DNA from: a virus
DNA: 39,184 nucleotides
Direction: 5' to 3' (one strand)
UHGV virus genome: UHGV-1367746
In this document: positions 34,021-39,184 of the stretch, one piece after another
Numbering within the stretch: position 1 is the first letter of the stretch
Layout: each line of letters begins with the position of its first letter
The notes under the pieces: model-generated
Database searches by the model: none
Seen by the model: only the letters and a program-made list of their open reading frames with translations
What the model was told of the DNA's origin: nothing
Made by a program: the position numbers and the translations under genes

Positions 34021-36702
34021 TTAAGCGAATGCAAAGTCTGAAGACAAGATGTCCTCGATATTCAGTTTACCTTTCTTCGGAAGCTCAGGCAACTTGTCGC
34101 GCTGGCTCTCGTGAAGCTGGTATTCAAACTGCTCGTAGAAGTCAAGCAGCACATCGTTGTCGCGGTAAGTCTCTACCATCGTCTCACGGACGCCACGGAA
34201 CAGATACTCAGCGTCAGCCGGGATGGTCCCGAAGCTATCGTGAATCACTGCGAATGACATCACGCCATACTTGCGGTGAGTGTGGACTACAGTCTTTCGG
34301 AGGTGGCTACCATCTTGTGAGTGGACGAAGTTCGGGCTAATGCCTGACTCCTGCTTGTGCTTGTCCAGCTCTTTCTTCGTGCCTTTGTTGACTGTAGGCT
34401 GAAGGTTGAATGACCCTAAGAACATCAGGTTCAGACGAGTGGTATCCTTCTTGCGGTATTCCTGCCATACCGGGAACCCATCAGGTGTGACCCAGTGTAC
34501 CGGAAGACAAGGCTTCAGGATTTCTCCAGTCTTCTTGTCCTTCACCTCAGCAGCCAGCAGCTTGGCAGCACCTTGAAGCCACTTCATCGCGTCAACCGCA
34601 GCAACTACTGTCACACTCACAGCTTCCCAAATCATCTTAGCCATGAAGCGAGACGCTTGGCTTGGTTCAGTGAACATAGCGCCAGACCCTGAGTCAATCG
34701 CTGGCATCACGATGTCCTCGTATACTTGGTCTGCGAAGCCGTACTCTTTCGACCCGTAGGCCAGAGTCATGACCGAACGCTTAGTGACCTTGCGTGACAT
34801 ACCGTAGGTCAGCCACTGACGGGCCAGCTCTCGTGTCCCCAGCTTGAGACGCTCGGTAATCTCACCAGTTTTCTTGTCCTCGTGAGTTGCCATCTCGTTG
34901 TCCGTACCGTTAACCAGCAGGACTTTGAGTTCCTCCTCAATGCGGTCAGACACAATGCGATAGATGTCTTGGACCTTACCGGATGGCGTTAGGTTTACTG
35001 CATGCCCACCGATGTGGTCACGAAGCATCGCGCTGAAGTGCTGAATCCCAGAGCAGGACCCATCGAAAGCTATCGGCAGCGAGCAGGAGTAAGACAAACC
35101 GTGGTGCATTACGCCAGCATACTCGAAGCAGAACGCTAGGAAGCAGAACGGAGAGTCTAACTTACCCCACCACTCAATGCTGTCCATCGGTGCCTTAGCG
35201 GTAGCCATGATGTTGTCGTGGTTATCTTCCACCCACTTGATGCGCTCCTCGAAGGTTACTTTATCAATACCCGCACAGTTTGCACCGTGGACCTTCAGCC
35301 ATTTGAAACCATCAGCACCAATAGGCTTACCGACTGCCAGAGTCAGGAGACCCTTTTGCATGTCGTTACCCTGAGGGTTGAACATCGGCACAGCGTAGAC
35401 GCGACCGCGCCAGTCCATGTTGTACGGAAACCAGATGGCCTTGAACTGAGAGAACTTGTTCGCTTGGTTAACGATAAAGCTCAGTGACAATCTACGTGAC
35501 TGCCGGGCCTTCTCTCGGCGGTAGATACCAGCAGCAGCCTTCTTCCATGCCTTGAGTTCCTCTTCAGTCTCACCCGCATAGTCTTCAGGCTTCAGTGGCT
35601 CCATCTGAGGGATGTCATCAATAGGTGTGTTGTTCAACTTCTCGACCATGTTCACCACGTCCAGCACCTTCTTGTTCACTTTCCAAGGTGTATTCTGGAT
35701 GATATTCACAGCGTCATAGACTTCAGGCATGTATACGTCTTCATAACGTGCCACCGCTGACTTAGACCCTAAGCGAATCAGGGGCAGCGGTCTGCGACCT
35801 TTGGCCCAGTACCCACCGCCTACGACACCAGTCCACGGCTTAGGTGGAACGACGCAAGGCTGGTAGACTGGAGCGATACCCGCAAGGCTGAATCCTCGTT
35901 GTGCCATCTTCTTGACCCAGCAGTCTGACAGGTGGACCATCTCTACGTCAGCCGCTGCATTGCCAGCACCGTACCGCTTAAGCTCGACCAGTTGTGTTGA
36001 CTGGATGACAATCTCAAGCATCTTGATGCCAACGTGGACAGCCTCTGTAGGACTCCAAGTCCCCCACGCATCTTCCAGTTGGCCTTGCTCCAGCATGGAT
36101 GCCTCGACCGCTTGCATGTAGGCTTTCTTGTAGGACGCCCCGGCCCGCTTATTCAGGTTATCAGCTATCGCCTTCTTGAAGTGCTCTTTCTCCTTGTCAC
36201 GGATGCGGCCGAAGCGGATTTCGTCCTCAAGTGTGCGACCTATCGCGGAGGCCATCGGTGTAATCGGTATCCCTTCAGGCTTGACCAGCTTGGAGAGTAT
36301 GACCTTCAGTATGATAACCGCAGCAGACTCACATGAGATGCGCAGAGAGCGGTCCTTGACGGCCTTCTCTTCAGTGCTCAACATGGTGAACGCCACGCTA
36401 GGACGAGAGGTTGACAGCTTCCCGTCTGGCCCTTCATGCCACTCCCTTACGGCTTGCGCAATCTTAGGGACCAGAGTCTGCATCAAAGGCTTGGCGACCT
36501 GATTGTCTGCCAGTTCCCCGCGCTCAGTCTGGCGCTCAAGGTTCTTGATGAAACGTCGCTCGCCTTCAGTGTATGCCTCGTGCTCAAGCTGAAGCTGTTT
36601 GACTGCAAGGTCTTGCCCGTAGTGGTCAGCCAGCAGGTTAAACGGCTCAATGGCGTTCGACACATCAGAGAAGTCGTGTTTTTCAATAGAGATGACGCTC
36701 AT
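34021..36702 (-). CDS. Single-subunit DNA-directed RNA polymerase (T7 RNAP-like, gene 1)
   Basis: 893 aa; extensive identity to T7 RNAP (DFSD, PFN.LADHYG, IWFPYNMDWRGRVYAV.MFNPQGNDM.KGLLTLA.GKPIG, WLK.HGANCAG.DKV.F.ERIK..E.NH.NIMA, DSPFCFLAFCFEYAGV.HHGLSY.CSLP.AFDGSCSGIQHFSAMLRD, RSVMTLAYGSKE.GF, HDSFGT, C-terminal FAFA). Confidence 0.98.
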   Translation of the reverse strand: MSVISIEKHDFSDVSNAIEPFNLLADHYGQDLAVKQLQLEHEAYTEGERRFIKNLERQTERGELADNQVAKPLMQTLVPKIAQAVREWHEGPDGKLSTSRPSVAFTMLSTEEKAVKDRSLRISCESAAVIILKVILSKLVKPEGIPITPMASAIGRTLEDEIRFGRIRDKEKEHFKKAIADNLNKRAGASYKKAYMQAVEASMLEQGQLEDAWGTWSPTEAVHVGIKMLEIVIQSTQLVELKRYGAGNAAADVEMVHLSDCWVKKMAQRGFSLAGIAPVYQPCVVPPKPWTGVVGGGYWAKGRRPLPLIRLGSKSAVARYEDVYMPEVYDAVNIIQNTPWKVNKKVLDVVNMVEKLNNTPIDDIPQMEPLKPEDYAGETEEELKAWKKAAAGIYRREKARQSRRLSLSFIVNQANKFSQFKAIWFPYNMDWRGRVYAVPMFNPQGNDMQKGLLTLAVGKPIGADGFKWLKVHGANCAGIDKVTFEERIKWVEDNHDNIMATAKAPMDSIEWWGKLDSPFCFLAFCFEYAGVMHHGLSYSCSLPIAFDGSCSGIQHFSAMLRDHIGGHAVNLTPSGKVQDIYRIVSDRIEEELKVLLVNGTDNEMATHEDKKTGEITERLKLGTRELARQWLTYGMSRKVTKRSVMTLAYGSKEYGFADQVYEDIVMPAIDSGSGAMFTEPSQASRFMAKMIWEAVSVTVVAAVDAMKWLQGAAKLLAAEVKDKKTGEILKPCLPVHWVTPDGFPVWQEYRKKDTTRLNLMFLGSFNLQPTVNKGTKKELDKHKQESGISPNFVHSQDGSHLRKTVVHTHRKYGVMSFAVIHDSFGTIPADAEYLFRGVRETMVETYRDNDVLLDFYEQFEYQLHESQRDKLPELPKKGKLNIEDILSSDFAFA

Positions 36703-36771
36703 ACTTAAAGTCCTTGTTATTAGTCTTTCACTTAAAGTCTCTTTGGTCTTTCACTTGGAGTCTTAGACCTT

Positions 36772-36794
36772 GAGTCCTATAGTGATAGTTAAGT
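36772..36794 (-). promoter_or_regulatory. Phage RNAP promoter located directly upstream of the RNAP gene, +1 at 36777
   Basis: Minus-strand ACTTAACTATCACTATAGGACTC, 75 nt upstream of gene 1 ATG; full match to family core CACTATAGG. Confidence 0.65.
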
Positions 36795-36799
36795 CATAA

Positions 36800-37126
36800 T
36801 TACTTGCATATCAGAGGGTTAGCGTGAAGATGACTGAAGTCACCGTGAGTCGTGTGCTTGATGGTTGACCGTTGGTCTATCGCCTTCCAGCCTGAGACCA
36901 GAAGTTTACCATCGTCGGTGATTGGTCGTCCACCATACGCCAGACACATCAGCTCGGACTTATGGCCCTCTGCCCTGAGTCGTGCCTGTAGTACACGGTC
37001 CCGCTCCTGCTGTTGACGTGCGGTGTGACTTGACGTTCCGTGACGATACCCGGTAGCCAGTAGGCTTAACATGTTCATTTCTGCGTCCATAGAGCGTACC
37101 AAATTAATCCCGTATGACTTGTTCAT
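36800..37126 (-). CDS. Hypothetical early protein (ORFan)
   Basis: 108 aa ORF between ocr and RNAP; start ATG abuts stop of upstream ORF; no recognised homolog (T7 has 0.7 kinase here, which is absent). Confidence 0.6.
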   Translation of the reverse strand: MNKSYGINLVRSMDAEMNMLSLLATGYRHGTSSHTARQQQERDRVLQARLRAEGHKSELMCLAYGGRPITDDGKLLVSGWKAIDQRSTIKHTTHGDFSHLHANPLICK

Positions 37127-37323
37127 TACAGTTTGCTCCCAAGAGTTGCTATATCCCAGACGTTCGCTAAGTTACGCGCGAATCGCCCATTAGGTTGGCG
37201 TACAGTCCAGCGGCCCAGACGTGCATAGTTGAATTTATAGACTTTACGTGCCTTGTTGATGTCTCTCATCAGCATGTAGGCGATAAGTCCATAGCCTATG
37301 GCTATCAATAGTTCGATACTCAT
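37126..37323 (-). CDS. Hypothetical small membrane protein (early ORFan)
   Basis: 65 aa; N-terminal hydrophobic helix IELLIAIGYGLIAYMLM followed by basic region. Confidence 0.55.
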   Translation of the reverse strand: MSIELLIAIGYGLIAYMLMRDINKARKVYKFNYARLGRWTVRQPNGRFARNLANVWDIATLGSKL

Positions 37324-37442
37324 AGTGATTTCCGTTTAATACAATCGTATATCCCATAACCTATCATCCAGATAACTGGCGCTAGGCATACCAAATATCC
37401 CACACTCATAGTTAACCCCTATCAATGTAAGTGATAATCTTT

Positions 37443-37468
37443 GAGGCCACCTATCAGTCGATGACCTC
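37443..37468 (-). promoter_or_regulatory. Conserved RNA hairpin (candidate RNase III site) in early region
   Basis: Minus RNA GAGGUCAUC-GACUGAUA-GGUGGCCUC, 9-bp stem with 2 G.U pairs; same stem core as other family members. Confidence 0.45.
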
Positions 37469-37611
37469 TCGTTTATCACTCAGTATCCACCTGTCAGCGT
37501 TATGGTCAAGCTATGGTGATTAGCCACGTAGCAAGCCCCGCGCTTCATCATCTCGTAGCACCCATCGTAGAACGCCTGTTCACTGCTATAAGTTATCTGG
37601 TACATTTCTGC

Positions 37612-37845
37612 TTACCCTTGGAATCCTACAGTGTTAGGCCACAGCGTAACGGTCCTACGCTTGGAGGTGATAAGGTCGGTAAATGATATCCGATATGCTG
37701 TGCCCTCAGGTGCTAGTATGTTGCCCTCATAGACCGCTTTCAGGTGGCGCATAGTCGCATCGTGGTTTAACTGCCCGGTCTTGACCATAAGCCGGGCGTT
37801 GGTGACGTGGTGCTGGCAGAGACCATAAGTCACTATCACTCGCAA
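37612..37845 (-). CDS. Hypothetical early protein (ORFan)
   Basis: 77 aa ORF immediately after ocr; start may be internal (overlaps ocr 3' end by 10 nt). Confidence 0.5.
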   Translation of the reverse strand: MRVIVTYGLCQHHVTNARLMVKTGQLNHDATMRHLKAVYEGNILAPEGTAYRISFTDLITSKRRTVTLWPNTVGFQG

Positions 37846-38180
37846 TCCTCCTCGTCTGCCTCTTCATCCTCAAACCAGACCACATCCGAGCTATTAGACA
37901 CGTCGTTATAAAGCGCCTCATAGATGCGGGCTTGCAGTATACGCGTTACATCCTTGGTTTCAGGCATCAGCCCAGAGTCCTCAAACTCGTGGTCTATACC
38001 ATCAGCAGCCATTACCGTGAAAATCTCGTGGTAATAGTGCGGAACCATATAGTCTACGACTTCATGCAGCGCATCGTAATAATCATCGCCTTCAGCTATT
38101 TCGTCGTACTGAATACGCTCATTGAACAGCTCAACGGTTGCAGCCAGCAGGTCATAGTATGCGTTAGCGTTACGTTCCAT
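37836..38180 (-). CDS. ocr: Ocr-like DNA-mimic anti-restriction protein (gp0.3)
   Basis: 114 aa, highly acidic; similarity to T7 Ocr (N.R.QYDEI...DD..DA.HE..D..VPHYY..IF.VMA..GID.EFEDSGLMP.TKDV.RILQARIYE, acidic C-terminus); first early gene position. Confidence 0.9.
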   Translation of the reverse strand: MERNANAYYDLLAATVELFNERIQYDEIAEGDDYYDALHEVVDYMVPHYYHEIFTVMAADGIDHEFEDSGLMPETKDVTRILQARIYEALYNDVSNSSDVVWFEDEEADEEDCE

Positions 38181-38261
38181 ATTTATATCCTCTCAAAGTT
38201 AATTGTGTGTATGTTAGTGACTATCAATCAGGCCGCTATGAGTCTAACGACCTGTAGTTAA

Positions 38262-38438
38262 TCACTGGCAATTGAACGCATGGTTCAGGCACTTATTGAA
38301 CGCGTCCTGCGCTTGCTCACGGCTATCCCACTCAGTCTTAGACAATCCGTAGATTATCACATGCTTAGTGCGATACTTATAGTCGTTAGCCGTATACCAG
38401 ATTACGCCCAGTTCTTCGTTCATCGCTATGATTTTCAT
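38262..38438 (-). CDS. Small hypothetical early protein (58 aa)
   Basis: ATG at 38438 to TGA at 38262-38264; preceded by the same leader element (hairpin plus TTGATAGTCACTAAC) that precedes ocr; not in ORF track (below 60 aa). Confidence 0.35.
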   Translation of the reverse strand: MKIIAMNEELGVIWYTANDYKYRTKHVIIYGLSKTEWDSREQAQDAFNKCLNHAFNCQ

Positions 38439-38619
38439 AATGTTACCCTATTTAAGTTAGTGACTATCAGTCAAGGCCTTCAGATGTAGACTCAAAGACC
38501 CTGTAGTTAGTCGCTATCGGCGCACATTAAGAGTTTATCCAGATTGTTAAAGAGCATTCGCGTTGGCTGTCGTCGCCGTGCTATCCCGTTTCAGTGTTGG
38601 GACTCACTGTCGTTTCGAT

Positions 38620-38656
38620 GTGGTACAGCTTACAGCTTTTAAAGGAGGCTGTCAAC
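38620..38656 (-). promoter_or_regulatory. Candidate host sigma70 early promoter (T7 A3-like)
   Basis: Minus strand TTGACA-N17-TAAGCT then GTACCACATCGAAACGACAGTGAGTC, which closely resembles my recollection of the T7 A3 promoter start region. Confidence 0.5.
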
Positions 38657-38766
38657 CTGTTATTCTTTTATGCGGTGAGTGACCGAATTCGACTCACAGC
38701 TGGTGCCTTATCCTTGGCTGGTCTCGGGCAGGTTTCTCGGTTCCTATCCCTACGCCATCTTGCTAC

Positions 38767-38804
38767 GTGGTACATACTACTTTAAGTCGGTACAGCTTGT
38801 CAAC
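38767..38804 (-). promoter_or_regulatory. Candidate host sigma70 early promoter (T7 A2-like)
   Basis: Minus strand TTGACA-N18-TAGTAT followed by GTACCACGTAGC; shares downstream motif with promoter at 38620. Confidence 0.45.
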
Positions 38805-38906
38805 TGCTTCTGTCATCTGCCTGTTGTTCGTATGACTTATCAGGCTGTCTACTTAACCGGGATGACCCGGCGTCTTCACTATCGGTTGTTGCCGTGTCGT
38901 GTTGAC

Positions 38907-38943
38907 GGAATCTATTAAGCCATAGTCTAGACCTGTAGTCAAT
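38907..38943 (-). promoter_or_regulatory. Candidate host sigma70 early promoter (A1-like)
   Basis: Minus strand TTGACT-N17-CTTAAT; most upstream of three tandem candidates at the genome left end. Confidence 0.35.
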
Positions 38944-39080
38944 AGGTAATTTGAAATAATATTGAGTAAGCTATCGTCGGCCCCATGGTGTAAGAGGATA
39001 TAGTCTTTGACTAACATGTCTTTGACCTTAAGTCTATAGCTGTGTGTCGATTAACTGTAGGCCTTTGACTGTAGGCGTTG

Positions 39081-39184
39081 GTGTCTTATGGTTGTGACTT
39101 ATGGTTGTGACTTATGGTTGTGACTTATGGTTGTGACTTATGGTTGTGACTTATGGTTGTGACTTATGGTTGTGACTTATGGTT
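39081..39184. repeat. Tandem array of 13-mer gtgacttatggtt (7 perfect copies plus 1 variant gtgtcttatggtt) at window end (terminal repeat region)
   Basis: Direct reading 39081-39184; same unit as positions 1-52, so both genome ends carry the array. Confidence 0.9.

Follow-up and report, generated by a model that had tools for sequence, protein, structure and literature searches.

The virus genome UHGV-1367746 (39,184 bases; hereafter the window, i.e., the whole stretch of DNA that was analyzed) is a complete genome of a T7-group phage lying on the reverse strand, and it belongs to the genus Kayfunavirus, the K1F-like phages of the Studiervirinae. Our subject is a cluster of small open reading frames (ORFs) and a hairpin at positions 36800-37845, between ocr (gene 0.3; 37836-38180) and the phage RNA polymerase gene (gene 1; 34021-36702). 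An initial annotation made from the sequence alone had placed four ORFs there, and these are present on the minus strand like all other features of the cluster (37612-37845, 37480-37605, 37126-37323, and 36800-37126; Table 1). It had further read them as unrelated orphans that replace the T7 0.4-0.7 module. The 1.5 kb around the cluster show 88-93% identity over 81-94% of their length to dozens of Kayfunavirus records, and we consider it likely, taking the explanation as a whole, that 36800-37845 is the standard early ("class I") gene block of this genus. The T7 early layout of gene 0.3, gene 0.4, the R0.5 site, small membrane protein(s), and, further on, gene 1 is kept. What truly sets the block apart from T7 is its lack of the 0.7 kinase and of T7-type genes 0.5 and 0.6 as well as its possession of genes for a 41-amino-acid (41-aa) protein, a 29-aa protein, and gp0.38, all three of which are standard for Kayfunavirus. 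The sole trait peculiar to this genome is a fusion of its gp0.4-like gene with a neighboring 66-aa gene.

Table 1. Features of the early gene cluster and its boundaries.
Feature	Position	Strand	Remarks
ocr (gene 0.3), upstream boundary	37836-38180	-	Pfam PF08684 ocr, E 9e-32; 52% identity to T7 gp0.3
gp0.4::66-aa fusion, 75 aa	37612-37839	-	GTG start; 77-aa ORF of the initial annotation from TTG 37845
Deletion junction, imperfect direct repeat CTATGA(G/A)GGC	37723-37732	-	134 nucleotides lost relative to five metagenomic relatives (L009-L013)
41-aa ORF	37480-37605	-	phrog_33188
R0.5-type RNase III hairpin (putative cleavage site)	37428-37482	-	Fold and alignment with T7 R0.5
29-aa hydrophobic ORF, probable membrane peptide	37320-37409	-	Annotated in EPr2, Peacock, and Baskent
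65-aa T3 gene 0.6 family protein	37126-37323	-	phrog_2385
108-aa gp0.38 family protein	36800-37126	-	phrog_7066, E 3e-46
Phage RNA polymerase promoter, downstream boundary	36775-36792	-	TTAACTATCACTATAGGA
RNA polymerase gene (gene 1)	34021-36702	-	Bounds the cluster downstream

The first ORF after ocr exists as initially annotated, but its start is most likely the GTG at 37839, which gives a protein of 75 aa instead of 77. This codon overlaps the ocr TGA and lies 6 nucleotides (nt) downstream of GAGGAGGA, and the JGI gene call is identical (protein P0134, same sequence). We assign the N-terminal part of the 75-aa protein to the gp0.4 family because a Pfam model, reciprocal PHROG matches, pairwise and profile alignments, and gene position all agree on this. 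The model PF26807.1 (Phage_T7_GP04), which is carried by all T7 gp0.4 relatives, is precomputed on exactly this protein and on its Kayfunavirus homologues; a scan with a Pfam library that lacks this recent model gave no gp0.4 match. Residues 5-42 align with residues 6-42 of T7 gp0.4 at 39% identity over 38 residues (BLASTP of the pair, E 1e-5), and a profile-profile comparison (hhalign) of 26 Kayfunavirus homologues with 24 T7-type gp0.4 proteins reached a probability of 89% and E 2e-6 over 40 columns. Both proteins also hit the same families reciprocally (phrog_5058, 7202, and 25044). The gene adjoins gene 0.3 with overlapping stop and start codons like T7 gp0.4 and is followed by the R0.5 homologue, so that its sequence match to PF26807 is joined by the expected position after ocr and before R0.5. 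It departs from the family in its size and composition, as it is not a protein of about 50 aa made of two antiparallel helices only but has 75 aa with residues 40-75 derived from the phrog_16587 family.

This unusual C-terminus appears to be the product of a deletion. The protein consists of gp0.4-family residues 1-39, counted from the GTG, and of the last 35 residues encoded by the 66-aa gene next to it, i.e., its tail matches the C-terminus of the 66-aa proteins P0135 and P0136 (phrog_16587); canonical Kayfunavirus gp0.4-like proteins have 49-58 aa. Five metagenomic relatives show the order ocr, gp0.4 (53 aa), and 66-aa gene; where gene calls extend further, the 41-aa, 65-aa, and 108-aa genes come next and then the polymerase gene. 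Comparison by blastn with one of them (L013, the only relative checked in this way) yielded two collinear blocks with a 134-nt offset and a 10-nt overlap, with breakpoints between ...GTCTATGAGGGC and CGCAAG in gp0.4 and between ...AGCTATGAAGGC and AACATA in the 66-aa gene. The two pieces are joined in frame because the parental genes lie in different frames and the loss of 134 nt equals 2 modulo 3. Judging from these alignments, the 75-aa ORF is a chimera in which a 134-nt deletion between short imperfect repeats has replaced the last ca. 12 residues of gp0.4 with the last 35 of the 66-aa gene. Neither this chimeric nature nor the conserved 29-aa ORF at 37320-37409 had featured in the initial annotation.

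It is possible, though in our view doubtful, that the fusion is a non-functional by-product, i.e., a crippled allele in a dispensable region or an assembly artifact, and that both genes are effectively lost. The fusion protein forms a cluster with a single member among ca. 15 billion proteins, and its junction was absent from 50,697 GenBank phage records, none of which covered more than 53% of the ORF. Odd in-frame fusions in relatives (P0158, P0143, P0146, and orf29 joined to the gp0.6 C-terminus in ZG49) suggest that such deletions are frequent and tolerated. Studier and colleagues are said to have found in 1979 that deletions in the T7 early region arise between short direct repeats and that its genes are non-essential, or dispensable in the laboratory. 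However, the deletion restores the frame exactly across two genes in different frames, the fusion keeps the whole Pfam-recognized core and all mapped FtsZ-contact positions, and its start codon and Shine-Dalgarno sequence are intact.

Comparable rearrangements are seen elsewhere in the early regions of Kayfunavirus relatives. In phage ZG49 (ca. 2270-2420), orf29 is fused in frame to the C-terminus of gp0.6, while P0158 joins gp0.4 to the C-terminal half of gp0.6, P0146 joins an ocr with an internal deletion to gp0.4, and P0137 and P0143 are gp0.4 proteins with other tails. Many of these breakpoints coincide with the point where the gp0.4 core ends in ...AVYEG(R). Relatives of the 66-aa gene are found just before the 0.7 kinase gene of Klebsiella phage KA1-1 (1420-1614) and in the unrelated Vibrio phage ICP1 (1159-1371; 49% identity over 51 residues), which suggests a small early gene that is mobile. 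The fusion illustrates how dispensable early genes are remodeled via deletion between short repeats.

The function of T7 gp0.4 provides a framework for interpreting its Kayfunavirus relatives. This protein folds as a hairpin of two helices and sequesters FtsZ monomers, and its toxicity is abolished by the substitutions V15A, V22A, W28A/L, M32A, L35A/P, and Y39A, while A12, T14, L16, S19, R23, and K36 are required only for activation of CapRelEbc (Zhang et al., Nat Microbiol 2026, PMC13423816). Of these six FtsZ residues, the 75-aa protein has five in identical form (V15, V22, M32, L35, and Y39, the exception being W28) compared with 10 of 31 other aligned positions (one-sided Fisher p = 0.03 for the enrichment). 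Across the Kayfunavirus homologues, the equivalents of V15, V22, L35, and Y39 are invariant (26/26), and that of M32 is a methionine in 23 of 26. The gp0.4-family protein would thus most likely bind monomeric FtsZ with the helical-hairpin surface that T7 gp0.4 uses, and block division. For the fused 75-aa allele, we lean slightly towards gp0.4-like action on FtsZ based on these residues; for the canonical Kayfunavirus form, our confidence in the same prediction is higher. Only one of the six CapRelEbc residues is identical in the 75-aa protein, which probably does not trigger this system; a natural escape from CapRelEbc is predicted because the trigger residues mostly differ.

The same comparison bears on K1F. 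Infection by this phage mislocalizes FtsZ and filaments the host, and the same study stated that K1F "lacks the 0.4 genes" and that BLAST found no gp0.4 similarity (Dhanoa et al. 2022, PMC9372555). We found that a 49-aa ORF after K1F gene 0.3 shares 73% identity with the core of the 75-aa protein and falls into the same PHROG, and this gp0.4 homologue is the likely culprit behind the mislocalization of FtsZ by K1F. Recognizing the ca. 50-aa gene after ocr in K1F-type phages as a gp0.4 homologue that keeps the FtsZ-contact residues mends a gap in annotation and literature, and the question of the K1F division inhibitor therefore becomes a one-gene test.

Downstream of the fusion, all ORFs of the cluster are shared with many other phages. 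Each listed ORF matches a PHROG family with 130-765 GenBank phage records, and synonymous exceeds non-synonymous change in every one of them (ratio of non-synonymous to synonymous change [pN/pS] mostly 0.1-0.4, computed against 11-12 related loci with small substitution counts; 0.03-0.09 for the polymerase N-terminus as a comparison). By this measure, the cluster ORFs are conserved under purifying selection. The 41-aa ORF, previously listed as merely possible, is a real gene with 133 phage records (41 of them at at least 99% identity) and a pN/pS of 0-0.24; it occurs beside gp0.4-like genes in phages of Klebsiella, Pectobacterium, and Rahnella as well. The 29-aa ORF has AGGGG as its Shine-Dalgarno sequence and is open in every relative examined; the Peacock protein has visibly diverged in sequence while its length and hydrophobic profile are kept. 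An alternative 47-aa ORF that overlaps the hairpin and the 29-aa ORF, in the frame of CR44b gene 0.41, was rejected since neither CHX131 nor loci with an inserted gene keep this frame open. In CR44b itself, gene 0.41 (1333-1551) starts inside the R0.5 hairpin, its frame is broken in other relatives, and it is probably a mis-annotation.

The 65-aa ORF encodes, as its sequence indicates, a T3-type gene 0.6 protein. It shares length and 42% identity with T3 gp0.6 (also 65 aa; E 1e-10), both match phrog_2385 with similar strength (2.6e-30 for the window protein and 9.1e-30 for T3 gp0.6), and its identity to K1F "gene 0.6" reaches 88%. The transmembrane helix noted in the initial annotation corresponds to an N-terminal hydrophobic helix in a hydropathy-window analysis (maximum at residues 3-19), as expected of a T3 gene 0.6 family member, and is followed by a basic C-terminal tail. 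The family comprises 765 phage records including many from phages of Klebsiella, Pectobacterium, Yersinia, and Erwinia, in which the gene can sit just before the 0.7 kinase. A literature search on the function of T3 gp0.6 found no functional study.

These results bear directly on the idea that a set of three or four unrelated orphan ORFs has taken the place of the T7 0.4-0.7 module and codes for new inhibitors of host processes or defense systems, which we now regard as unlikely. No Pfam, PDB, or fold relative was seen for the products of 41, 29, and 108 aa, which could indeed not be assigned, the early position would fit host-directed functions, and there is no 0.7 kinase homologue between gene 0.3 and gene 1, where the longest ORF on the coding strand has 108 aa. 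Likewise, no cluster ORF matched T7 gp0.5 or gp0.6A/B by BLAST better than E ~1, and their PHROGs differ without cross-hits. However, the first ORF falls into the gp0.4 Pfam family and the 65-aa ORF into the T3 gp0.6 family, the hairpin is an R0.5 element, and families that recur in 130-765 phage records are not orphans. The orphan reading is thus already refuted for the 77-aa ORF, the 65-aa ORF, and the hairpin. Replacement of the module holds for the 0.7 kinase and T7-type 0.5/0.6 but not for the gp0.4 relative, R0.5, or the module layout, which are kept. Homology searches, which had been proposed as a check together with structure prediction, uncovered the gp0.4 and T3 gp0.6 relatives; for gp0.38, neither approach gave any, and the ORFs, far from lacking conservation, recur in relatives under apparent purifying selection.

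The hairpin, described as conserved from the outset, proved to be so. The 70 nt that separate the 41-aa from the 29-aa ORF fold into a lower and an upper stem, the latter of 9 bp, with an internal loop between them (-27.7 kcal/mol, z -5.4; none of 200 shuffled sequences was as stable), and the element is 90-96% identical in 12/12 Kayfunavirus loci irrespective of the flanking genes. Its aligned counterpart in T7 is the stretch from gene 0.4 to gene 0.5, with CTGAGTGATAGAC, AGGTC, GTGGCCT, and GATTATCACTT as shared blocks. In the alignment, 96% of cells are paired compared with 30-45% when partners are slid, and three pairs have changed on both sides. The T3 record annotates the equivalent element, which has the same fold and architecture, as "RNase III recognition site R0.5". 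With its position, its sequence, and its two stems with an internal loop, the hairpin is by all appearances the counterpart of T7/T3 R0.5, and by analogy to these phages it would be cleaved by host RNase III. We consider it very improbable that it is instead a transcription terminator, attenuator, or other regulatory element and not an RNase III site. It is a strong conserved stem-loop within an intergenic gap, as such elements would be, but no U-tract follows it (a terminator scan of 36500-39184 gave 0 sites), the T7 R0.5 region can be aligned with both its flanks and its upper stem, the T3 R0.5 layout is the same, and the downstream genes including the polymerase gene must be transcribed through it. 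A scan of 36500-39184 with Rfam gave no match.

Other stem-loops were seen upstream of ocr. Two of them on the minus strand (38200-38262, z -3.9, and 38445-38512, z -1.9) share the core ACAGGUC...GGCCUGA with R1-type sites of T7 and T3 and flank a conserved 58-aa ORF (38262-38438; phrog_20418). Based on this core, they are probable R0.3-type processing sites. A candidate R1-like hairpin before gene 1 was unsupported (z 0.07), and this place is taken by a phage promoter instead.

The last gene of the cluster encodes the 108-aa protein, which goes by the name gp0.38 in EcoDS1 and CR8 but is called 0.42 in CR44b. It matches the gp0.38 family (phrog_7066) in sequence and lies directly upstream of gene 1, as it does in every locus inspected, and its top matches in BFVD are EcoDS1 Gp0.38 and the CR8 protein (B3VCS9 and W6PUN3). 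The family has 144 close homologues, mostly on contigs of ca. 40 kb, and 224 phage records. An exhaustive search of 1.84 billion representatives with a gp0.38 profile hidden Markov model recovered 14 clusters only, all of them family members or spurious. Searches of PDB and Pfam with the single sequence and with the profile gave no match, and no sequence or fold relative was detected outside the family, which in these searches is restricted to Kayfunavirus-like phages. Residues 25-108 form the conserved core, and a C-terminal T-x-x-G-D-F-x-H-L peptide is invariant even in members with 30-50% identity. AlphaFold2 run with a diversified alignment reached a mean predicted local distance difference test (pLDDT) score of 71.7, with ca. 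90 for residues 40-80, and predicted helices at residues 9-25, 33-52, 56-63, and 71-88, while the conserved C-terminal peptide was not confidently ordered.

Literature searches on gp0.38, gp0.35, and Kayfunavirus early genes found nothing functional. Our best guess on gp0.38, as conjecture only, would be an early effector that binds a host protein via its C-terminal peptide. More speculative is a two-part scenario: gp0.38, in the slot of the 0.7 kinase, would be a new early host-takeover or anti-defense effector acting via T-x-x-GDF-x-HL, and, as an independent part, the gp0.4-like proteins of Kayfunavirus would inhibit FtsZ without being sensed by CapRelEbc-type systems, owing to a diverged sensor-contact surface; that both hold together we regard as rather unlikely. 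A derivation of the 108-aa protein from the N-terminal part of the 0.7 kinase as a degenerate relic, in which the C-terminal GDFSHLHANPLICK would go back to kinase GNGHFSAAYSHPLL..VIKV, can be dismissed as extremely improbable: the gene fills the slot directly before gene 1, and GDFSHL was aligned with GHFSAA repeatedly in both BLAST and hhalign, but these matches are non-significant (BLAST E 2.6; hhalign probability 0.2%, and 0.9% with a different alignment when a kinase profile was used), and AlphaFold2 predicts helices where the kinase N-lobe would have beta strands. Among the four small early proteins without explanation in Kayfunavirus, gp0.38 is the best experimental target.

Two observations in other Kayfunavirus relatives concern the same slot. 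In K1F (NC_007456), an unannotated 65-aa ORF with a GTG start (2271-2468) corresponds to the conserved gp0.38 core and lies in the seemingly "empty" gap between gene 0.6 and gene 1. Baskent_phicoli_1 carries an "endonuclease VII" gene (141 aa; 2205-2630) between its gp0.6-like and gp0.38-like genes.

The phage promoter occurs in 10 copies in the window compared with 0.03 expected by chance, and one copy on the minus strand lies between gp0.38 and gene 1 while none is found inside the cluster. Such a lack of phage promoters within the cluster would agree with its transcription by the host polymerase, as expected from T7 and T3 biology. The initial view of this stretch as the early region of a T7-like phage holds. 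By analogy to both phages, host RNA polymerase would transcribe from left-end promoters through ocr to gene 1, and RNase III would then cut the long early transcript at hairpins, the R0.5 homologue at 37428-37482 among them. The early block would in this way supply a gp0.4-family protein, the 41-aa protein, two small membrane proteins (29 and 65 aa), and the helical gp0.38 without a 0.7 kinase. Elsewhere, a predicted promoter is annotated in CR44b at the same place directly upstream of the polymerase gene, and ZG49 carries a 174-aa gene with a glycine-loop-like GKGAF motif (983-1507) in the usual place of ocr. The end of the window (ca. 39085-39184) consists of about seven head-to-tail copies of GTGACTTATGGTT that run off its edge, presumably a repeat array beside the left terminal repeat of the genome.

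Some observations speak against this account of a conventional early block with a working gp0.4. The position of W28, at which W28L and W28A inactivate the T7 protein, is occupied by histidine in the Kayfunavirus family (24/26). The native C-terminus of the window protein is lost two residues past the last mapped contact, Y39, so that the second helix could be destabilized. The fusion was seen in one metagenome contig only and could be an assembly artifact or a crippled allele. In addition, the pN/pS values of the cluster ORFs are drawn from few substitutions, and the predicted membrane location of the 29-aa and 65-aa proteins comes from hydropathy alone.

Compared with known systems, the window's gp0.4-like protein shares with T7 gp0.4 the Y-G-L motif, the turn glycine, and V15, V22, M32, L35, and Y39. 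It differs from it in the change of W28 to histidine, in five of the six CapRelEbc-trigger residues, and in its length of 75 instead of ca. 51 aa, as the native C-terminal ca. 12 residues are swapped for 35 of another gene. Its closest counterparts are the Kayfunavirus gp0.4-like proteins, i.e., gp0.35 or the unnamed 49-aa ORF after gene 0.3 of K1F, which have the same position and 73-95% identity over residues 1-41; canonical members end in ...AVYEGRKRIHDSLHAEDK, while the window protein departs after AVYEG.

The R0.5 elements of T7 and T3 and the hairpin of the window have a common framework of CUGAGUGAUA...AGGUC...GUGGCCU...GAUUAUCACUU and the same two stems with an internal loop, but the loop sequence of the upper stem differs and three pairs have changed on both sides. 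T7 R0.5 is intergenic and lies 3' of the gp0.4 gene, whereas the 41-aa ORF intervenes in the window; in T3, which is without gp0.4, R0.5 follows directly after gene 0.3. In T7, the membrane peptide gp0.5 comes after R0.5, while here this place is taken by the 29-aa peptide and gp0.6. The latter shares with T3 gp0.6 its length, its PHROG, the site 3' of R0.5, and a conserved R-(F/W)-TVR-x-(P/R)-NGRF motif, whereas T7 gp0.6A/B (the MreB inhibitor) is unrelated to T3-type gp0.6 despite the common number. T3 gene 0.6 is then followed by 0.65 and the 0.7 kinase, but in the window the 65-aa gene is followed by gp0.38, which belongs to the same family (phrog_7066) and occupies the same position before gene 1 as gp0.38 of EcoDS1 and CR8, with variation in the N-terminal 25 residues (forms of 83-139 aa).

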